Sequence record: OQ973471.1
From: Escherichia phage AV101
Reading direction: 5' to 3' (one strand)
DNA: 64,000 nt
Part shown: piece after piece, positions 7,018 through 62,766 of the stretch
Numbering within the stretch: position 1 is the first letter of the stretch
Layout: the number at the start of each line of letters is the position of its first letter
Translations under genes and position numbers: made by a program
Notes under the pieces: model-generated
Database searches by the model: none
The model's input: only the letters and a program-made list of their open reading frames with translations
Told to the model about the DNA's origin: nothing

Positions 7018-8402
7018 TCGAAAACAGAGAGACCCAAGACGGTATTGTAACACCGTCAACAACATTTGACCTGAAGTATATGGCGATCCTCCCTCATACG
7101 CCCCAGGGTGGATCACCAACGCCATATGACCTGACGGCGTTGTTTGAGGAGTTCAACGTCTTCCAGGATCTGGGTCTTGAAGGGAAGTCATCTCCATCAC
7201 TTACAGCCAATGTCTTGATAAAAGAGGGGTGGGACATTCTTGACACAATGCCTATCTTGGGTGGTGAAGAAGTTGTGGTGTCATTCAAGAGTCCGGCAGC
7301 CTCGGAATACACCACTCTCTCCCTGCGCGTAGCGCGTGTTGGGCGCGTAGCTGATGAGTCCAACAGCTCGTCCAAGAAAGCATTCTGGTTGCACATGGTG
7401 ACCACCGATGCCTATAAGGACAGCATGATCCGATGCTCCCTCGGTCTTGACGGTTCGTATTCTGACATGGCGAAGACAATCTTCAATCAGCTGGAGTCGC
7501 GCACCAAGTTCGAAGACATCGACCCGTCGTATGGAATTCAAGAGCGGTTCGCCACCCCGCTCTGGCCTGTGCTGCGATCTATTGATTATATGGCGAGCCG
7601 TTCTTATGACGAATTGTTCATGCCATTCGTGTTCTATGAAGACTTCAATGGCTATCACTTCAAGAGCCTGACGACGTTGTTCAACCAGGGCAGCCAGTCA
7701 TTGACAGCAGAAGAGAAGCAGGAACTAGCTCAGCAGAACAAGTTGTTCCGTGATCCTCAGGACGCGCCGCTCATGCAGGATAACAACTTCAACTCTGAGC
7801 GCTTTATGCGCACGATCATCAAGGCAGAGAAGAAGCTGGCGCGTGACCAGTTCATGGCAAACTACCGCGATGTCCTGGCGGTGAACGAGCGCGTCTACGA
7901 CTTTGAGACCAAGACAGTCACCCCAACACAGCGCGTCTACACTGAGTGGTTTGCAGAGACGGCTCACCTTGATCCGTTCCCGATGTTCTCAGATGAATTC
8001 AATCGTCAGAACGTCCGTTACATTGAAGCCCAGCCGGATGGAGCGGAGCAGATTGATTATGCTCGTCGTGTTATCAACTTCAGTCTTGCCAGCACTGTGA
8101 TGCGCGTGTTGCTCGTTGGTGATAACCGCCTGAACGTCGGTCAGGTGTTCTACGTTGAAGACCAGTCCAACCGTCCTAAGAAGAACGAAAACCTGGCAGA
8201 GTTAAGTAAGCTATCGACAGGCCACTATATCGTGACCAAAGTGCGTCACAAGATTTCCCGCCTGACCAAAGATTATCAGTGCATCGCTGAGATTGCCAAG
8301 GACAGTTTGCTGGAGCAGGTGCTTCCACCTCAGACCAATCAGACAACTGCTTCCACCACTACTCCTCAGGCGATTGAGAAAGGCCAAGCACAGAAGGTTT
8401 AA
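7014..8402 (+). CDS. putative baseplate hub protein (gp27-like, tentative)
   Basis: 462 aa; position between structural genes and upstream of tape-measure-like gene. Confidence 0.3.
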   Translation: MIENRETQDGIVTPSTTFDLKYMAILPHTPQGGSPTPYDLTALFEEFNVFQDLGLEGKSSPSLTANVLIKEGWDILDTMPILGGEEVVVSFKSPAASEYTTLSLRVARVGRVADESNSSSKKAFWLHMVTTDAYKDSMIRCSLGLDGSYSDMAKTIFNQLESRTKFEDIDPSYGIQERFATPLWPVLRSIDYMASRSYDELFMPFVFYEDFNGYHFKSLTTLFNQGSQSLTAEEKQELAQQNKLFRDPQDAPLMQDNNFNSERFMRTIIKAEKKLARDQFMANYRDVLAVNERVYDFETKTVTPTQRVYTEWFAETAHLDPFPMFSDEFNRQNVRYIEAQPDGAEQIDYARRVINFSLASTVMRVLLVGDNRLNVGQVFYVEDQSNRPKKNENLAELSKLSTGHYIVTKVRHKISRLTKDYQCIAEIAKDSLLEQVLPPQTNQTTASTTTPQAIEKGQAQKV

Positions 8403-14188: not shown

Positions 14189-15378
14189 AATTTCCTCAAT
14201 TTGGCTCTGGTGACCTGAGTTTGTTTAACGCCGTTGTACTCAGTCAGTTCTTTGACACGACCACGGATGATCATATCGCCCTGCAAGAACTCTGTATCCA
14301 TATAAGAGGTCTTCCAGGTAATTGTATTACCTTCTGCTGTTTTGAAAGTAAACAGGTAGCTATCACCATATTCATTGGAGAAGAGGAAGGTGCGCTTGTC
14401 GAACCTGACTTGCACTTCCAGCATTTCACCGACTTCACCCACCCATTTGTTCTCCGCCTTGCGGTCAGCACGAGGACGATGGATGTAATCGTAATACTTC
14501 TTGGCACCCCAGCGGACTGTGTTGTTATCCTTGATGAGGTGATAACCGGGTTCACACATGCGTTTCAGGCGAACATTGAACTCATTAGATTCGGACAGCG
14601 CACTGATGAAAAGCTTCATATGGTACATTTCCGACTCGGCGTCTTCACAGTATTCGTGTGCCTTGTTTACGAAATACTCTTCATCGGAACCTGCTTTTGG
14701 TTTCTGATGAGACCGGACATAGCCCAGTACTTTGTCAAACAGTTCAGACTTGATATCCACGCCTGCCAGCATCACCTGGAAGCATGCACGCAGGAAACTG
14801 TGGGTGTCAGTGAAGCGCTCATTTTGGACGCGATATATACCCTCTGGGTCGTCCTCGTCTGGCATGAAGAACTCTTGGATTTCCAGATAGTAAGACATAA
14901 TCGCGTCAAGCGATTTCTGATGAGGTACATAATGATGCATACAGGTGCTACCAATCAGCATCTGGGCATGCGTTTCCTCATTTTCAATCACATACGTGTT
15001 CTTGCGACGGATGACTAGATTGCAATGCTGACACCAAGAGACGTTCTCTGTCTCGAAGCGACGGATGAATTCTGGGTTGATGTTGTCAACCAGTTTGTTC
15101 AGAATGACCTTTGGATATTCATGATTGAACTGACCGATGATCTTCCAGCCACCATAAGAGACGGGGCGGTCAATGCCTTCGCCTTCGAGAGTAACAGGTT
15201 TCCACCAGTGAGTAAGGATCTCACCAGTGAAGTCGCGGGTGTGGGTTTTGAAGGGTTCACCATAAGTCACAGTCGGAAACGGAACACCCAACCTTTCGGC
15301 AGTGCGCTCGAGCTTCTTCAGTCGCTCAACTACCAACCCTTCATTGTCGATCGGAATATTGAATGTTTTGACGTTCAT
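14185..15378 (-). CDS. hypothetical protein with putative zinc-binding Cys/His cluster
   Basis: Start refined to ATG 15378 (GAGG RBS); WCQHCN...STCMHH cluster; own promoter and terminator. Confidence 0.45.
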   Translation of the reverse strand: MNVKTFNIPIDNEGLVVERLKKLERTAERLGVPFPTVTYGEPFKTHTRDFTGEILTHWWKPVTLEGEGIDRPVSYGGWKIIGQFNHEYPKVILNKLVDNINPEFIRRFETENVSWCQHCNLVIRRKNTYVIENEETHAQMLIGSTCMHHYVPHQKSLDAIMSYYLEIQEFFMPDEDDPEGIYRVQNERFTDTHSFLRACFQVMLAGVDIKSELFDKVLGYVRSHQKPKAGSDEEYFVNKAHEYCEDAESEMYHMKLFISALSESNEFNVRLKRMCEPGYHLIKDNNTVRWGAKKYYDYIHRPRADRKAENKWVGEVGEMLEVQVRFDKRTFLFSNEYGDSYLFTFKTAEGNTITWKTSYMDTEFLQGDMIIRGRVKELTEYNGVKQTQVTRAKLRKL

Positions 15379-15421
15379 TTCCAGCCTCATGATGTAGTTG
15401 TAACTCTTCAATACAGATTAA

Positions 15422-25378: not shown

Positions 25379-26323
25379 GTGGAAGACTATCGCAATTTTA
25401 TCACACAGATGTTACATCGGGGCTTGTCGCGCAAAAACCGCTTCAGAGTGACCATCCCTCTACCACCAGGGATCTTTGACTCCAATGCCACTCTGGCTAA
25501 TGACGGAAAGGCGTACAGAACCAATTCATCTTTTGGTGACTTGTTTAAGCAGTCAGCCCGTATTGTAAACGCTTTCTTTGGAGGGACAAACCAGACGTCC
25601 CGTTCCCTTCAGATGATGTGTATGGTTGCCTCATTGCCAGGGGTTGGTATCGACACCACTCCAATGACAAGCAACGGTAATCACATCAAGATGCCGAACA
25701 ACAAGTCCAACGTCGACCTCGACTTGTCATTCTTATTAGCCAATGACTATTATGAGAAGTCTGTGATGGACAAGTGGAAGAGTCTGATCTTTGATCCACA
25801 CACCACCAAAATGGGATATTACGAAGACTTCGTGACTGACATATGCATTGAACAGCTTGATACCGAAGATCAAGTGGTCCACCGCGTCTACATCGTCGAG
25901 GCTCACCCAATAAATTTCAGTTCTATTGAGCTGGATAAAGGTGCCACAGACCAGTTCAACCAGTACAACATTTCTTTCTCTTACAACAAAGTGCTTTCGG
26001 AGACAGAATATGAAACACGCAGCCTTTCCAGCGATTTTCTTCCTCTCGGCATTGCTGACGCTCTTACCAGTGGTGACTGGGAAACTGCGGCCTCAAAAGC
26101 CGGACAACTTTATCGCAAGGTGAAAGAAGGGAACTTCACAGGAGAGGCTCTCCTGGCTTACAAACAGCTTGACCAACTTGTAAACAACCTGGCTGGGATA
26201 AGCATACAGGACTTCGAGCGCATCTCGGTAGGTATCTCTCGTGACATCATGGGTAACGATAACCTGACGGCGGCGGAGAAGACAAGCCTGTTGGGGTTAT
26301 TGAAAGACGTGATGGGAAAATAA
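25379..26323 (+). CDS. baseplate tail-tube initiator (gp54-like)
   Basis: N-terminus and tube-fold C-terminal strands resemble T4 gp54 as recalled; GTG start with GGAG RBS; TATAAATA at 25337-25344. Confidence 0.5.
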   Translation: MEDYRNFITQMLHRGLSRKNRFRVTIPLPPGIFDSNATLANDGKAYRTNSSFGDLFKQSARIVNAFFGGTNQTSRSLQMMCMVASLPGVGIDTTPMTSNGNHIKMPNNKSNVDLDLSFLLANDYYEKSVMDKWKSLIFDPHTTKMGYYEDFVTDICIEQLDTEDQVVHRVYIVEAHPINFSSIELDKGATDQFNQYNISFSYNKVLSETEYETRSLSSDFLPLGIADALTSGDWETAASKAGQLYRKVKEGNFTGEALLAYKQLDQLVNNLAGISIQDFERISVGISRDIMGNDNLTAAEKTSLLGLLKDVMGK

Positions 26324-33907: not shown

Positions 33908-34368
33908 CTACTCCGCCAGGGTGATCACAACCATATTTAAGACTGTGTCGATAGCTCGGCCTGTTTCCTCTTCATGGAGGGTTTCGGCGCGGAGGTGCAC
34001 GTCGGTGATGAAATTGTCGATGTGCATTGAAGTCAGATACGGGCGGTGTTGACTGACCGGGCGGTTGACCAGAACATAATTGCGCAATGTGTTGAAGTCC
34101 TGATGAGAGCACCCCGTTGTATCGATACGAAGGAAGCGTTCGTTGTGGCTTGTCTTCAACTCAGTCACCTTGCCGAGGTAGGCCAGAGGTCCATTGCGAC
34201 CGATACGGAACATGACATCAACAACAGACTTGAAGATTTCGCGTTCAATCAGTGCGGTGGGTGACCAGCAGATCTCTTCTTTGTCGTCGGCGTACAGGGT
34301 GTCGATCACCAGAGGAAGTTGAATGTAACCGAAGTTGTGCAGTGGGTTGGTGAGTACTTTGTTTGTCA
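33908..34368 (-). CDS. hypothetical protein
   Basis: Start refined to ATG 34368 preceded by conserved AGGAACTATATC cassette. Confidence 0.4.
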
Positions 34369-34467
34369 TGATATAGTTCCTGCTTTCAATTTGTGGCGAA
34401 TGCCAATGAATTACTGGGAAGTATAGGGGAGGGCGTTTCAAAAGTAAAGCCCCTCATTGAGGGGCTT
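34369..34467 (-). repeat. conserved intergenic cassette copy: GC hairpin + CCCTATACTTC + TTGAAAGCAGGAACTATATC-ATG
   Basis: Near-identical in 3' part to copy at 47284-47378. Confidence 0.6.
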
Positions 34468-34474
34468 TGACAGA

Positions 34475-34699
34475 TCAGCGTTTGAGGCTGGCGGCGAGTC
34501 CATTAACGTCGGTCACGGTCTGGTCAGCGAGGACGATTACAGGCATCGACACGCGCGGCTTACCCGTCAACTGCTGAAGTTCTTCCAGCCGGTAATCTTT
34601 GTCCAGCTTGAGGATCTTGTGCTCCAGCCCTTTCATTTTGCACAGATTTTCGGCTGTTACACACTGAGCGCAACCTTGTTTGGAATAGATCGTAATCAT
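34475..34699 (-). CDS. glutaredoxin/NrdH-like redoxin
   Basis: 74 aa with CAQC active-site motif, immediately downstream of nrdB. Confidence 0.6.
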   Translation of the reverse strand: MITIYSKQGCAQCVTAENLCKMKGLEHKILKLDKDYRLEELQQLTGKPRVSMPVIVLADQTVTDVNGLAASLKR

Positions 34700-40175: not shown

Positions 40176-40664
40176 TTAGGCCAGTTTGCTCACCAGAGCT
40201 TCAACTGCGTCGGCGCTCAGTTTACCCATTTTGACGTATTGAGCTTTTGCTTCGCCGCCAACTGCTTTCACGATGTCGGTGTTGTCGTACCCCTTCTTAG
40301 GGAAGACCATCACAGAGAAGGAACCGTTGTTCAGCGGGTTCAGCTGGATGCGACCTTTACCGACTACGATGGTGCCGTAAGTTTCGGTGTTTGCTTCGAC
40401 AATGTGGATGTCGTGACCCAGGTTTTTCAGCATACCAACTTTGTCGGCAGTCTTAGCAACCACAGCTTTATCAACCACAACCTGCTCTACCAGGGTGAAG
40501 CCGTTAGTCGCTTTCACTTTACCGTTCAGCAGGTTCATGAAGGAAGTTTTGCCACCAGTGAAGCCAGCTGCCTGAGCGATGCGGAACATTTCAACTTTAG
40601 CAACTTCGGTGTTCAGTTCGAAAGAGATGGTGCCGTTGGTGATCAGAGTTTTGGTAGTAGCCAT
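40176..40664 (-). CDS. hypothetical protein, likely abundant
   Basis: Strong GAGGA RBS, structured leader, terminator on both sides; Thr/Val/Gly/Lys-rich. Confidence 0.45.
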   Translation of the reverse strand: MATTKTLITNGTISFELNTEVAKVEMFRIAQAAGFTGGKTSFMNLLNGKVKATNGFTLVEQVVVDKAVVAKTADKVGMLKNLGHDIHIVEANTETYGTIVVGKGRIQLNPLNNGSFSVMVFPKKGYDNTDIVKAVGGEAKAQYVKMGKLSADAVEALVSKLA

Positions 40665-40802
40665 GATGTAATTCCTCATAATGTAGTTGGTTCATTTCAC
40701 TTTTCATTCGGCGGTGTGTTACCGCCCTATGTGAACTATAATAGTGTATCATTATTGAAGAGTAAAGTCTTTTTCAATAAATTTTTAAATAATTTTGAAG
40801 TA

Positions 40803-43069: not shown

Positions 43070-43423
43070 TTACGACAGCTGCTTCAGTTTGTAGATCGTC
43101 TGATAGCACAGTGTCTTGATTTCATCAAGCGTGTTCTGAAGGTGGGAGTCACACTGCTTGTAGATGCCATCGACGTCTATCACCACACTGTTGACATAGG
43201 CAATTGGGTCTGGGTTGTAGAGCTTGATGTTCTCGAATGATGGAACATACTGACCACCCGCACCGATGTATGCTTCGGTAAACGTGTCCAGCAAGTCCTC
43301 TAGATCCCCGTAGAACTCCCCGAGTGCCTTGTGCTTGGCATAGGATGTTGTAACGAAGTGCAAGGCATGAGAGTGGGCTATAGCAAGCAGTCCACGGTTG
43401 ATGAAAATACTCGCATTGACCAT
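43070..43423 (-). CDS. hypothetical protein
   Basis: GAGGA RBS; 117 aa. Confidence 0.4.
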   Translation of the reverse strand: MVNASIFINRGLLAIAHSHALHFVTTSYAKHKALGEFYGDLEDLLDTFTEAYIGAGGQYVPSFENIKLYNPDPIAYVNSVVIDVDGIYKQCDSHLQNTLDEIKTLCYQTIYKLKQLS

Positions 43424-43516
43424 GATGTTGTCCTCAGAAAAAGAAATCCCCCTGTATTTAGGGGGATCCAGTTACAGACCAAGTTCTTTCGTCGTGGCGT
43501 CGTCTAGTGCAACCTC

Positions 43517-46947: not shown

Positions 46948-47283
46948 TTATTTTTGAACTTGGGCTACAGACATCGCCCAGAGCGGGAGGGTGTGGGGGT
47001 CCAGGGCTTCCAGTAGATATTCGACGCGCTCTGACATGATACCTTCAGGGAAGTTTACTTCTTCTGGTTCGTTGTTGGCCGTCCAACCCAAGGTCAGTCC
47101 TTCAGCGTGATGGATGATATAAACGAAGTCGCCCGATTCGTAGTCCTTTTCCATCAGGTCGAAGAAATGGAAGATTTCTTCGTCGGAGAAGTAGTAGATG
47201 CGAGGTACAGAGCCGTCAGCAAAGTGCTCAGCACCCTGGAAGGCAAACATGTCATCGGCAGTGAAGTTCTTGAGTTGTGTCAT
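46948..47283 (-). CDS. hypothetical acidic protein
   Basis: Start ATG 47283 preceded by AGGAACTATATC cassette. Confidence 0.4.
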   Translation of the reverse strand: MTQLKNFTADDMFAFQGAEHFADGSVPRIYYFSDEEIFHFFDLMEKDYESGDFVYIIHHAEGLTLGWTANNEPEEVNFPEGIMSERVEYLLEALDPHTLPLWAMSVAQVQK

Positions 47284-47378
47284 GATATAGTTCCTGCTTT
47301 TCAAGTTGGTGTCGTACTGCTTATGGAATGAAGTATAGGGAAGGATATTGAAGAAGTAAAGGGGCGTTTGCCCCTTTT
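47284..47378 (-). repeat. conserved intergenic cassette copy
   Basis: Shares CCCTATACTTC and TTGAAAAGCAGGAACTATATC-ATG with copy at 34369. Confidence 0.6.
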
Positions 47379-47389
47379 ATTGAATTATT

Positions 47390-48025
47390 TTACGGCGTTG
47401 TAACCACCGGGATATGAGACCGAATTCCAGCGATGATGTCCTTCAGCTGAGGCTTCCATCCATCCACCAAACGGGGTAGAGCGATAGCACCAGGCTGGAC
47501 CAAAATGATGTCGCTGCCTGTGATATTGTGCTGAGGGAACTGGGCAAGGTACTGCTCCATGGTGACACCCTCATCAATCAGAACCGCACCGACGTCAGAC
47601 GATGCGTAGGTCGCACCCAGACCGTCAACGCCCCATGCCAAGATACCCCAGTCAGGGATGTTGGCTTCAGATGTGATGGTGAATCCAAACACAGTGTTCA
47701 GGGAGGTGAAGGAATAGACATCGTGAGTTATGTCATACACCAGATACCCCTTGGCCAGCATATCGGCAAATATCGCGTCCGTATCGCCAGCAGCCGGAGT
47801 CGGTACAGTAAACAACAGCTCACCCTCAGGAGGAGCAGGATACGTGCCGAGGGCATAGAGGCACCACGCATCGATGCACTTCTTGATAAATGCCTCCGGT
47901 GCGACATAATCAGCAAGGCGAACCGTACCTGAGTACTCTGATACGATAATGCCTTCCTTCGCACCCTGTAGAGCAATGAAGACCAAGATATGTTCATATC
48001 CGGCCTGAGATGGAGTGATGTTCAT
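47390..48025 (-). CDS. hypothetical protein
   Basis: Start ATG 48025 overlaps stop of upstream gene (TAATG). Confidence 0.4.
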   Translation of the reverse strand: MNITPSQAGYEHILVFIALQGAKEGIIVSEYSGTVRLADYVAPEAFIKKCIDAWCLYALGTYPAPPEGELLFTVPTPAAGDTDAIFADMLAKGYLVYDITHDVYSFTSLNTVFGFTITSEANIPDWGILAWGVDGLGATYASSDVGAVLIDEGVTMEQYLAQFPQHNITGSDIILVQPGAIALPRLVDGWKPQLKDIIAGIRSHIPVVTTP

Positions 48026-48639
48026 TATCTTGTCCTCTTCAGTTTCTCTATTGTGTGCCTGTTCATGGCGATCACCTGAGGATCTACCTCGGAGATGGTC
48101 CGGCCTTCGAAGGACACACATTTCTGAAGATATTTAGCTTTCTTCACGACGTCGGCAGCATAAGCGTTCGATGCAGGATTACGGGCGAAGCCAGCATTGT
48201 AAGAGGAGAGGGATTTGCGGATATTCTGATTGTGATAGGTCAGCCAGAACTGCATCTCATCGAGGGCGGCTTGCGCGGCATATTCTTGGTCGGTCAGCAA
48301 CTTTATGGCGACATTGGCATAGCACTTGCGATTCTTACAACCTTCGCGATCACCAACTGTCTTCACCTTGTTCTGAAAGGCTCCCATGTTGGCCGCCTTG
48401 AGGCCGTATCGCATTGACACTACATCTTCGCCAGCGCGGCTCTCACGCCAAGATATGGCGGCCAGAGTGTAGCCAAGATCTTGTGTCTTGCCCACGTGAT
48501 AGGCGGTTGCCATCGTATTAAGTTGTTGCTCAGAGAAATTATAAACACATTGACTTGTATTTTGGGAAGCGTGCACATTCCCGCTGGCAATGGTAAAGGT
48601 CACGGACAAGGCCATGGCCTTCAACGTTGTCATCGTCAT
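48025..48639 (-). CDS. secreted lytic-transglycosylase-like protein
   Basis: N-terminal signal peptide MTMTTLKAMALSVTFTIASGNVHA; SLT-like ISWRESR...GAFQ...YNAGF. Confidence 0.45.
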   Translation of the reverse strand: MTMTTLKAMALSVTFTIASGNVHASQNTSQCVYNFSEQQLNTMATAYHVGKTQDLGYTLAAISWRESRAGEDVVSMRYGLKAANMGAFQNKVKTVGDREGCKNRKCYANVAIKLLTDQEYAAQAALDEMQFWLTYHNQNIRKSLSSYNAGFARNPASNAYAADVVKKAKYLQKCVSFEGRTISEVDPQVIAMNRHTIEKLKRTR

Positions 48640-57768: not shown

Positions 57769-58431
57769 TTACACCTCCACCGCGTGAGACTTCAGGAGTT
57801 CATCAATCTCTTTCTGTCCCATGTATGAGAACGGGGTGCGCTGGTAGAACGCCCAGAGTACTAACTGGACAACAGCACGGGAACGGGTTTCGGCCGTCAT
57901 CACCAGGCCACTGAAATGAGGAGACTCAGCTGTCCATTGTATCTCTTCGCCCAGGTCTTGATTACAGGTCACCGAGATGCGGAACTTGTTGCACAGATTG
58001 TCGACTTCTTTGTACGCATCGGTAGACACACGAAGTTGTTCCGCATGCACCCACGGAGTTGTGATGATTCTTTCACCCATCACTTTATCAGAGATAAACC
58101 AATCAATACATTCGGTAAACTCACTAAAATGGTCGATACGATAAATGCAGTCTCCCCCTTCCATAGAACGCATGGCATGATAGCGAGCGTCAATTTCGTT
58201 GTTATGCATAGCGTTGAAGTCGATGAACACGCGACGCGCCAGCACAACATCTTCTGGTTGAAGTGCCAGGAAATCGTTCAGGCGGCTATAATGGAGGACA
58301 TTGGAACCGTCGTGGCCACGTGTGCAATATGCGTAATGGCTACCGATACGGGCGTGGGCAATATAAGACAACGGGGCGAAGAATAATCCGTCAGGATCAG
58401 GACCGACGATAATAGAATAAAGTTTTTCCAT
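57769..58431 (-). CDS. hypothetical protein
   Basis: Start ATG 58431 preceded by GAGACTATATC cassette. Confidence 0.4.
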   Translation of the reverse strand: MEKLYSIIVGPDPDGLFFAPLSYIAHARIGSHYAYCTRGHDGSNVLHYSRLNDFLALQPEDVVLARRVFIDFNAMHNNEIDARYHAMRSMEGGDCIYRIDHFSEFTECIDWFISDKVMGERIITTPWVHAEQLRVSTDAYKEVDNLCNKFRISVTCNQDLGEEIQWTAESPHFSGLVMTAETRSRAVVQLVLWAFYQRTPFSYMGQKEIDELLKSHAVEV

Positions 58432-58487
58432 GATATAGTCTCTCAAATGAAAGGGTAGCTTTATGATAAGCCGCCCGAGGTTATTGA

Positions 58488-61415: not shown

Positions 61416-61785
61416 AACGTACCCCCGACAGAGATCAAGAACTCTTCTTGCATGGTCTTGACCGGGTGGTGGTTGCGGGTTTCGATCATGAAGCCCCAGC
61501 CGCCGTCGGCGACGTTGCCAAAGGTCTTGACGCCAAAGGACTTCGTCCCGTTGGAGCAGGAATAGATGTCCAGGACGTATGGGCTACCCTGATTGTCGAT
61601 CCCACGATTCACGTCGTCTGATACGCAGCGCTCAATCATCTTCCCGTTCTTATACAGAACGAGGTCTTGGCCATACGCCTTGAAAGCATAAACACCGTTG
61701 GTAGACACTCCGGTGATGACAGGAGGGGCGGAAACAGCAGCAAAGGAAGCGCCTAGCAGGGCAACAGCGAGGATTAACTTTTTCA
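61412..61785 (-). CDS. secreted protein
   Basis: Start ATG about 61785; signal peptide MKKLILAVALLGASFAAVSA; two Cys pairs. Confidence 0.45.
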
Positions 61786-61832
61786 TGATATAGTCTCTTG
61801 GTTTCAAATGGGCGGGGTAATCATACCCCGCC
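61786..61832 (-). repeat. cassette variant with GGCGGGGTA-ATCA-TACCCCGCC hairpin + CATTTGAAA + GAGACTATATC-ATG
   Basis: Hairpin and flanks repeated at 62346-62392. Confidence 0.6.
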
Positions 61833-61838
61833 GTGGGT

Positions 61839-62345
61839 TTATAGAGTAACAAGTGATACGGTAAAAACCATCGTCCCGTCTGTTGCCATTTTTCTTGAAA
61901 CTGGTATGACGCGAGGCTGGCAGAATATCCATTCTTTCTCCATGGACGCCAAGTCCAGCATATCCATTTCTGATTCATCGCCTTTGTTCACAAATTTTTC
62001 TAGAGAACCATAGACATTAAGCCCCTCCGGGAGTCTGTTTCGATGTTTGTAACAAATGCGGGCAACAGCTTTGGTTCCGTACGATTTAGAAAATTTTTTG
62101 GCCACATGCTTCAGTTCACTGAAGCTAAGACAAGAGTCCCATGTCTGGAACATGTCGCCTCGTTCAAACATTATCTCTAAACGCGCAACGTCCTCTTTAG
62201 GCAACCCACGATAAAGTGTGGTCGTCTGTGGTTCGCGCAATTCTTGCACCAGATCGCGGACGGCAGGGGAAACAGTACCGGGGCGCATGATGTGGGACTT
62301 ATCATGGACGAGGTAAAATAAATCTTGAATTTGTTGATCGGTCAT
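61839..62345 (-). CDS. candidate mono-ADP-ribosyltransferase (R-S-E type), tentative
   Basis: Spaced TLYRG (Arg), SCLSFS (S-x-S) and DESEMD (E-x-E) in order and spacing reminiscent of T4 Alt/Mod-type ARTs. Confidence 0.3.
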   Translation of the reverse strand: MTDQQIQDLFYLVHDKSHIMRPGTVSPAVRDLVQELREPQTTTLYRGLPKEDVARLEIMFERGDMFQTWDSCLSFSELKHVAKKFSKSYGTKAVARICYKHRNRLPEGLNVYGSLEKFVNKGDESEMDMLDLASMEKEWIFCQPRVIPVSRKMATDGTMVFTVSLVTL

Positions 62346-62392
62346 GGTATAGTTCCTGCATTTCAAATAGACGGGGTAATCATACCCCGCCC
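62346..62392 (-). repeat. cassette variant copy
   Basis: GACGGGGTAATCATACCCCGCC hairpin + TATTTGAAATGCAGGAACTATACC-ATG. Confidence 0.6.
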
Positions 62393-62404
62393 AAAGTTAT
62401 AGAA

Positions 62405-62644
62405 TTAACTGATGTGCTTCAGAAGAGCGAAGAGGATCGCGGCCTTGGCCTTTACCTTTCCCACGATGCCTGTCTCGACATCAACTTCTTCAGCAACCCA
62501 CTCTTTTCCCTTCTTGCTGATGATAACGTCACGGCGCTGTGCGTAGACTTCTTTGGTCGCATACACACGGCGGAACCCTTTAGCGCGGAGCAATCCCCAA
62601 TTGCGATCAATTTCTACTGAGGTTTCTACCATTTTGTTCTTCAT
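62405..62644 (-). CDS. hypothetical protein
   Basis: 79 aa. Confidence 0.4.
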   Translation of the reverse strand: MKNKMVETSVEIDRNWGLLRAKGFRRVYATKEVYAQRRDVIISKKGKEWVAEEVDVETGIVGKVKAKAAILFALLKHIS

Positions 62645-62766
62645 GTTATAATCTTACCTTTCAACCCGGTGAACCCATCGTTCGCCAGTTATTGAATAAT
62701 AGGACATTCCTTAGAGGAAGTAAACCCCTAAAAGTAAAAATCCCCAACGTTTGTTGGGGACTTCTG

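Follow-up and report, generated by a model that had tools for sequence, protein, structure and literature searches.

Promoter-early stem-loop (PeSL) elements have been described in the T4-like myoviruses RB49/phi1, T4/PST and KVP40/nt-1 (Arbiol et al. 2010, PMC2839356; Comeau et al. 2014, PMC4122927). The published element comprises an A/T-rich stretch holding the upstream stop codon, a stem-loop, a σ70-like early promoter and, on its 3′ side, a Shine-Dalgarno (SD) sequence and start codon; the promoter consensus in T4/PST is TTTACW-N17-TAYWAT, "half" elements occur, and crossovers have been mapped between the −10 element and the ATG (PMC2839356, PMC4122927). Two other T4-type systems invite comparison, namely the conserved boundary or "linker" sequences of the T-even internal-protein locus (Repoila et al. 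1994, as cited in PMC4122927) and the operators of the translational repressor RegA, unstructured, A+U-rich sites that overlap the AUG or are located immediately upstream of it in ~30 early or middle mRNAs (Uzan and Miller 2010, PMC3014915). Here we describe a family of repeated intergenic units, typified by positions 34369–34467, in a 64,000-nucleotide (nt) stretch of Escherichia phage AV101 (OQ973471.1; the whole stretch is referred to below as the window). As judged from their sequence, these units are probably (roughly 0.7) PeSL-type early-gene expression cassettes of an Agtrevirus-like phage of the Ackermannviridae.

The assignment of the phage as Agtrevirus-like, within the Ackermannviridae, follows its sequence matches, with the 33–36 kb stretch of the window being 98% identical to Salmonella phage vB_CECAV_050 (Ackermannviridae, Agtrevirus) and 91–94% identical to Shigella phages AG3 and MK-13. 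Remoter matches of the window are to Kuttervirus, Limestonevirus and Klebsiella-infecting relatives. The genome is ~50% GC and the window consists mainly of a minus-strand block that contains genes for replication and nucleotide metabolism and small unknown genes, with a few plus-strand baseplate and tail genes between. UvsX-like and RecT-like recombination proteins are encoded by the phage.

The sequence ACTATATCATG occurs exactly at four minus-strand sites (34367–34377, 47281–47291, 58429–58439 and 61784–61794), with a one-mismatch copy, ACTATACCATG, at 62343–62353 on the same strand. With up to one mismatch allowed, ACTATATCATG has 7 matches in the window against 0.96 expected, a count reached in 0 of 100 shuffles, and the 15-mer AGGAACTATATCATG has 8 against 1.59 expected. 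The octamer followed by its start codon, ACTATATC-ATG, or a one-base variant of it, is thus found 5′ of five unrelated minus-strand genes, with the A of the ATG at 34369, 47283, 58431, 61786 and 62345. An earlier note on this DNA had pointed out five minus-strand genes with a near-identical start region, and the four exact copies and the one-mismatch copy bear this out; its start coordinates were right for 47283, 58431 and 62345 and off by one for the remaining two, given as 34368 and 61785. The shared stretch of about 20 nt that it described is present and is in fact longer, and reading of the sites gives the common unit TTGAAA-N2-4-AG(G/A)(A/G)(A)CTATATC-ATG. A sixth, degenerate copy, TTGAAAGGTAAGATTATAAC-ATG, precedes the gene for a 79-amino acid (aa) protein at 62644, and a weaker copy, AGGAATTACATC-ATG, the gene at 40664.

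At least seven of the eight positions of ACTATATC are matched in 5 of the 95 predicted starts, and 2000 column-preserving shuffles gave on average 0.47 such starts and at most 3. Since 5 of 95 starts match where ~0.5 are expected and more than 3 never arose by shuffling, the possibility that the motif is merely the general ribosome-binding site (RBS) consensus, which the earlier note had set against its own proposal, was rejected. The dissimilarity of the downstream proteins, also claimed there, was confirmed: each of the six proteins falls in a PHROG family of its own and none resembles another (all-against-all BLASTP, best E = 0.26), on which grounds paralogy was discarded, and no Pfam domains were found in them. 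The motif-bearing genes encode proteins of 79–220 aa, mostly of unknown function. All copies end in AGGA or GAGA followed by ACTAYAYC and the ATG at the gene start, and across 32 aligned copies T95, A98 and the ATG never vary, A93, C94, A96, C100 and one T of TTGAAA are at least 90% conserved, and the two variable spacer positions are mostly T or C. Every copy that was folded is predicted to be unpaired from TTGAAA to about +15, and ACUAUAUC-AUG is likewise predicted to be unpaired. A known RNA family was also rejected, with Rfam giving no match at the gathering score in the whole window and just a sub-threshold chance match at the locus.

Two observations concern start codons more widely. The triplet ATC immediately before the start codon is over-represented in the window, at ~11 of 95 predicted starts, including some outside the motif family. 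In the gene for the RecT-like annealing protein (15378–15398, minus strand), ACTACATC-ATG is found in frame 12 nt upstream of the annotated ATG (15378); this may be the true start of the gene and hence a seventh motif copy. The motif is kept at this gene in CBA120 (listed at L008 30449–30470), but there it lies 13 nt upstream of the annotated start.

Further upstream, CCCTATACTTC occurs exactly at two sites in the window, 34418–34428 and 47330–47340, the two named in the earlier note, and the promoter scan places it as the −10 region of a σ70-type promoter, TTTACT-N17-TATACT. Both copies follow stable GC-rich hairpins, likewise noted before, with predicted energies of −17.2 and −13.6 kcal/mol; at 34369 and 47283 the hairpin comes after the stop codon of the upstream gene and its T-rich tail contains TTTACT. 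A search with the strict pattern TTTACW-N17-TAYWNT returned five matches (23392, 34420, 40738, 47332 and 62696) against 0.08 expected, all of them intergenic and on the minus strand, and four of the five have a start region, conserved or degenerate, 40–70 nt downstream. The predicted hairpins range from −10 to −19 kcal/mol (z-scores −2.1 to −6.9), and those at 34446–34468, 47358–47377 and 62736–62765 lead into a T-rich tail that contains the −35 element.

Cassette A, in front of the gene for a 153-aa protein, is a full example on the minus strand, as are all the cassettes described here. Its putative terminator hairpin, AAAGCCCCTC-AAT-GAGGGGCTTT (34446–34468; −17.2 kcal/mol, z = −3.8), sits directly 3′ of the stop codon (34475–34477) of a glutaredoxin-like gene, and its stem is conserved in AG3, MK-13, CBA120 and Dickeya phage Kamild, where changes are confined to the loop. 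The predicted σ70-type early promoter, TTTACT-N17-TATACT (34420–34448; promoter scan and pattern search), would start transcripts at ~34414. The 5′ untranslated region (UTR) and start region, read from the sequence at 34367–34413, comprise a UGGC-N4-GCCA hairpin (34394–34405), TTGAAA (34384–34389), the SD sequence AGGA (34378–34381), the spacer ACTATATC (34370–34377) and the ATG (34367–34369), the start region being predicted to be unstructured. Cassette B has the same order of elements. Its putative terminator hairpin, AAAGGGGC-AAAC-GCCCCTTT (47358–47377; −13.6 kcal/mol, z = −4.8), comes after a stop codon at 47390–47392 and is followed by the promoter TTTACT-N17-TATACT (47332–47360; promoter scan and pattern search) and, according to sequence reading and folding, by an unstructured 5′ UTR and the start of the gene for a 111-aa protein (47281–47325), with TTGAAA at 47299–47304, the SD sequence AGGA at 47292–47295 and ACTATATC at 47284–47291 before the ATG. 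In CBA120 the −10 element of this cassette is TATAAT and the surrounding cassette is otherwise near-identical.

Cassette D (62642–62765; pattern search and folding) precedes the 79-aa gene and has a predicted terminator (62736–62765), a promoter of the form TTTACT-N17-TATTAT (62696–62724), a 5′ UTR stem-loop (62666–62688) and the degenerate start region TTGAAAGGTAAGATTATAAC-ATG. A related complete cassette at 40662–40766, found by pattern search, belongs to the gene for a 162-aa protein and consists of an AT-rich upstream stretch, TTTACT-N17-TATTAT (40738–40766), a 5′ UTR hairpin and the weaker start AGGAATTACATC-ATG. Cassette C (61784–61865; sequence reading and folding), at the gene for a 124-aa lipoprotein-like protein, has a promoter-like TTTACC (61860–61865)-N16-TATAAA (61838–61843) that overlaps the upstream stop codon, followed by a stem-loop at 61811–61832 (−19.2 kcal/mol), TTGAAA at 61802–61807, AAGAG-ACTATATC and the ATG at 61784–61786; the predicted transcript would open directly at the stem-loop. 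The stem in AG3 carries one compensatory change from G-C to A-U and one from U-A to U-G.

The remaining two sites are half cassettes. Half cassette C2 (62343–62393; sequence reading and folding), at the gene for a 168-aa ADP-ribosylase-like protein, is 84% identical to cassette C over 50 nt and comprises a stem-loop (62368–62393), TTGAAA (62361–62366), AGGA-ACTATACC and the ATG (62343–62345), with an upstream TATAAC that makes a poor −10 element; its hairpin (−18.8 kcal/mol) contains G-U pairs that fit the sense-strand RNA alone. Half cassette E (58429–58476) has an imperfect stem-loop (58453–58476; −10.4 kcal/mol), which is a perfect stem in the AG3 copy, and then TTTCATTTGAGAG-ACTATATC-ATG of the gene for a 220-aa protein; no convincing −35 element was found at this site (58431). 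Among the six sites at 34369, 47283, 58431, 61786, 62345 and 62644, the full terminator and promoter are present solely at 34369, 47283 and 62644, and the best-conserved part of the cassette is the translation start region, not the promoter. The hairpin changes among relatives lie in loops, are compensatory or produce G-U pairs, and therefore fit a role in the sense-strand RNA.

The motif is widespread in the family. With up to one mismatch allowed, it is found in vB_CECAV_050 at ~11–12 gene starts among 199 annotated features, all in early regions, with no matches in the late-gene segments, and in Kuttervirus CBA120, of a different subfamily, at ~12 annotated starts among 210 features. The late-gene segment of CBA120 has three matches, a number not above chance, comprising the start of an accessory gene (orf232), one intergenic site and one site within a gene. 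Seven sites are found in the AG3 segment and three in a Dickeya Limestonevirus segment, and a 34-nt probe matched 722 places in 280 phage records, nearly all from Ackermannviridae. The motif persists at orthologous sites across genera, and the start region also occurs without any promoter or hairpin (MK13_198, AG3_111 and PQ_134).

Compared with CBA120 at the DNA level, five of the six cassettes are 87–92% identical (cassettes A, which is intergenic, and D at 92% each) and half cassette E 77%, whereas the flanking genes are 56–80% identical, except for the 168- and 79-aa genes at 92–95%, and ordinary intergenic regions 69–81%. Identity to CBA120 jumps at the gene boundary. A block of ~970 nt with 87–98% identity ends exactly at cassettes D and C; it contains the 79-aa and 168-aa ADP-ribosylase-like genes (window 61790–62760 against CBA120 L011 29300–30280), and its neighbors are at most 75% identical or unalignable. 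On this pattern, the two-gene block may have been transferred recently from one subfamily to another, with cassettes at its borders. Two other observations were made in the relatives. A second locus with the promoter and UTR of cassette B lies at gene _132 of vB_CECAV_050 (L003 25944–26058) and orf176 of CBA120 (L009 47399–47513), where an inverted repeat, ACGGGG...CCCCGT, encloses the −35 element and spacer. Small open reading frames (ORFs) preceded by cassettes are unannotated in vB_CECAV_050 (L003 ~7315–7531, minus strand, at the position of AG3 orf00139) and in CBA120 (L010 ~43398–43408).

A comparison of gene content around the cassettes, proposed in the earlier note, revealed that relatives (MK-13, AG3 and CBA120) differ by gene insertions and deletions with breakpoints inside the repeats. 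At 34369, the interval from the glutaredoxin gene to the 153-aa gene holds two additional genes in MK-13. The first of them comes with a terminator of its own, a TTTACT-N17-TATAGT promoter, a hairpin and AGGACTATATC-ATG; the second is headed by the cassette that drives the 153-aa gene in the window, and the 153-aa gene is left with TAAGGAACTATATC-ATG only, an arrangement that places the crossover within GGAACTATATCATGAC. In most Kuttervirus records, ~235 extra bases (an orf096-type gene) separate cassette A from the 153-aa gene, and a few records are without them. The gene driven by cassette A varies, being the 153-aa gene in the window and in AG3 and Kamild, a 79-aa one in MK-13 and, in CBA120, the 77-aa orf096, which is related to the MK-13 gene. 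Conversely, the 79-aa gene at 62644 is preceded by cassette D in the window, vB_CECAV_050 and CBA120, and by another cassette ending in AGGACTATATC-ATG in AG3. At 47283, an additional gene of 276 nt, headed by cassette B, lies upstream of the 111-aa gene in AG3 and vB_CECAV_050; the 111-aa gene retains the bare start region, and BLAST shows a 16-nt repeat at the junction, in AGGAACTA. The promoter and UTR of cassette B precede a different gene (orf00112) in AG3.

The 168-aa gene (62345) is absent from AG3, and a 62-nt AG3 stretch aligns to both window copies, which places this junction in the hairpin/start-region repeat. Upstream of 62644, AG3 and vB_CECAV_050 have an extra small gene between direct repeats of the terminator and promoter. 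CBA120 is without the 111-aa (47283) and 124-aa (61786) genes, and in this phage cassette C is joined to the orthologue of the gene that follows. Overall, variable junctions were found at 5 of 6 motif sites against 11 of 32 others (comparison with AG3 and CBA120; one-sided Fisher p = 0.038). A different kind of insertion is seen in Kamild (L012 19100–19960), where a homing-endonuclease gene is inserted inside cassette A, just past the terminator, with TTTACTTT duplicated on either side and the promoter regenerated downstream; homing endonucleases may also use the cassettes as landing sites.

These features agree with the proposal in the earlier note that the units resemble the promoter/stem-loop modular cassettes of T4-type phages and move genes as units, the support being the PeSL-like layout and the indel junctions inside the repeats. 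In a full cassette, an intrinsic terminator hairpin would end transcription of the upstream gene, and a host σ70-type early promoter, TTTACW-N17-TAYWNT, with its −35 element in the T-tail of the terminator, would start a short 5′ UTR that often opens with a stable stem-loop and leads into the fixed, unstructured start region of TTGAAA, N2-4, AGGA, ACUAYAYC and AUG; some copies would be half cassettes, with the stem-loop and start region or the start region by itself. Because all cassettes share the same ~15–25 nt abutting the ATG, homologous recombination between two of them would delete, insert or swap whole ORFs, and the incoming ORF would always be fused precisely to a working SD-spacer-ATG, so that small accessory early genes could act as plug-in modules. 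The invariant 3′ end would then both initiate translation and supply the homology for exchange. The repeat family, its anatomy, its restriction to the early strand, its conservation across genera and the breakpoints inside the repeats are observed directly; we infer from them that the cassettes have promoter and terminator activity and that the junctions were made by recombination rather than by selection after random breaks, with the UvsX-like and RecT-like proteins presumably taking part in the exchange. The fixed 8-nt spacer could reflect a ribosome optimum, recombination homology or the operator of a RegA-type repressor.

The resemblance to PeSLs is close. Both have a stop codon, a stem-loop terminator, a σ70-like early promoter and the SD sequence and ATG of a small accessory gene; the promoter consensus is that of T4/PST; there are many copies per genome among small genes of unknown function, including half and degraded ones; and close relatives show indels and replacements with junctions between the −10 element and the ATG. 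At gene _132 of vB_CECAV_050 and orf176 of CBA120, the stem-loop surrounds the −35 element and spacer, as in RB49. The differences are that the Ackermannviridae are only distantly related to T4, that the best-conserved part here is the start region (the fixed 8-nt SD-AUG spacer and TTGAAA), which also occurs alone, that in several cassettes the UTR opens with a second stem-loop, and that most are 87–100% identical across genera and subfamilies. Moreover, mini-circles and promoter and terminator activity are among the criteria for PeSLs, whereas the Ackermannviridae cassettes are known here from sequence. As far as the T-even internal-protein linkers can be judged from their citation in PMC4122927, they too are short conserved non-coding borders that give homology for swapping unrelated genes, but the linker here is a full expression signal and is found at a dozen dispersed sites instead of one locus.

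Integron gene cassettes (attC/attI) are single-ORF modules gained and lost at a repeated sequence, each of them correctly expressed, and the modules described here likewise come and go at a repeat and would be correctly expressed. Unlike integron cassettes, they have no integrase or attC-type folded site and bring or share their own promoter, and their exchange is presumably by general homologous or annealing recombination, not site-specific.

Other functions for the shared sequence were weighed against the cassette reading. ACUAYAYC-AUG may be the RNA operator of the phage's RegA-family translational repressor (candidate site ACUAUAUCAUG in RNA), the motif-bearing early mRNAs then forming a regulon that is co-repressed later in infection and to which the cassette layout is incidental; this is a tentative but serious proposal, compatible with shuffling, that we consider unlikely as the principal explanation. 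The Ackermannviridae have a clear RegA homologue beside the clamp-loader genes, as in T4 (AG3 orf00162, PF01818, E = 1.9e-34), and a "translation repressor" is annotated beside the clamp loader in vB_CECAV_050, the RegA gene lying outside the window. The motif is placed between the SD sequence and the AUG of early-strand genes, is A/U-rich in a ~50% GC genome and is predicted to be unstructured, all of which fits RegA operators (PMC3014915); it is also found free of any promoter or hairpin in the three relatives named above, and the U/C exchanges at its two variable positions suggest constraint at the RNA level. The resemblance to the T4 and RB69 operators thus extends to short length, lack of structure, A/U-richness, a position at the AUG or immediately upstream of it, presence in a subset of early mRNAs and a RegA-family protein encoded by the phage. 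However, those operators are loosely defined A/U runs and not a fixed, sharply defined 8-mer, and homologues of the classical T4 targets (44, 45, 62, regA, rIIB and dexA) are without the motif at their starts in AG3 and CBA120. Position and composition make the motif a candidate operator, at which RegA would bind and repress translation. The two ideas can be combined, with a RegA operator built into mobile cassettes such that a gene recombined into one would gain early transcription, efficient translation and timed translational shut-off. This combination is doubtful; if true, it would be a portable, complete regulatory program for acquired genes and would provide the first sharply defined RegA recognition sequence.

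It is improbable that the shared sequence is no more than a highly efficient start region (open, A/U-rich, with fixed SD-AUG spacing and A at −3) selected for high early translation, with the indel junctions as by-products, since recombinants retaining the start region would alone be viable. The predicted lack of structure in all folded copies and the persistence of the motif at orthologous sites would be expected of such a sequence, as would the excess of ATC-ATG among the starts of the window and partial matches such as AGGAACATACC-ATG and AACGCCATC-ATG. Translation efficiency, however, rarely fixes all eight bases of a spacer, and ~90% of genes, highly expressed replication genes included, do without the motif. 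The likeness also reaches upstream into whole UTRs and promoters of unrelated genes, which argues for common descent or copying of cassettes and not convergence; copying between loci is thus suggested. Least probable, and rejected, is an antisense role in which the plus strand of the motif, CATGATATAGT, would be an extended −10 promoter (TGnTATAGT) firing across the upstream intergenic region. The reverse complement of the canonical copies does match TGnTAnnnT, with the 62345 variant altering the "n" position alone and the 62644 variant reading TGTTATAAT, but this pattern is not kept in all 32 aligned copies: the equivalent of the key −11 A is changed in 6 of them (ACTACATC to TGTAGT) and others lose the TG or the final (−7) T. 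Each copy is, moreover, exactly at a sense-strand start codon, and the G-U pairs and compensatory changes of the adjacent hairpins fit the sense-strand RNA and not an antisense one.

Several points weigh against the interpretation as PeSL-type cassettes. The promoter, terminator and recombination roles are deduced from sequence features, and the searchable literature holds no transcript-start, reporter or recombination data for any Ackermannviridae phage. Two of the five copies (58431 and 62345) have no recognizable promoter and consist of the stem-loop and start region alone. Gene-content variation is only modestly enriched at motif junctions (p = 0.038), the whole region being plastic, and several other indels in it have no motif (a homing endonuclease and AG3 orf00091, orf00098, orf00099 and orf00105). 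Junctions in the start region could also result from survival solely of those recombinants that keep a working start. Finally, conservation of the 5′ UTR across genera exceeds the need of a simple promoter and RBS, which hints at an extra constraint.

Apart from the cassettes, T4-like late-promoter motifs (TATAAATA or the variants CTAAATA and TTAAATA) were found upstream of structural and lysis genes at 25379 (+), 44095 (−), 5483 (+) and 39990 (−), and one CTAAATAC is located in the loop of a terminator-like hairpin at 43444–43469. The Kamild orthologue of the window gene at 48025–48639 (minus strand) is annotated as "endoribonuclease RegB family protein"; Pfam gives a weak, sub-threshold match to SLT transglycosylase for the window gene, the annotation looks doubtful, and a link to RegB was dropped.

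Although PeSLs as a kind of element are already known, the Ackermannviridae cassettes would extend them beyond the T4-like phages proper, with two unusual traits, the fixed SD-AUG spacer that also occurs alone and the very high conservation across genera. No paper was found that ties PeSLs, any defined early promoter or a start-region family to the Ackermannviridae, and a search for transcriptome and promoter literature on the family found nothing usable; the authors of the CBA120 paper report that informatics failed to find early promoters, and a 2024 review of the Ackermannviridae does not mention promoters. Control of early and middle genes is therefore essentially undescribed in these ViI-like phages, which are widely used for biocontrol. 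The cassettes provide a concrete consensus for early promoters and predict a set of transcription units, and their fixed start region is a candidate RegA operator open to testing. At ~100 nt, they would also be family-conserved, ready-made insertion and expression sites for phage engineering. For the biology of the family, they offer an explanation for the turnover of small accessory genes between genera.

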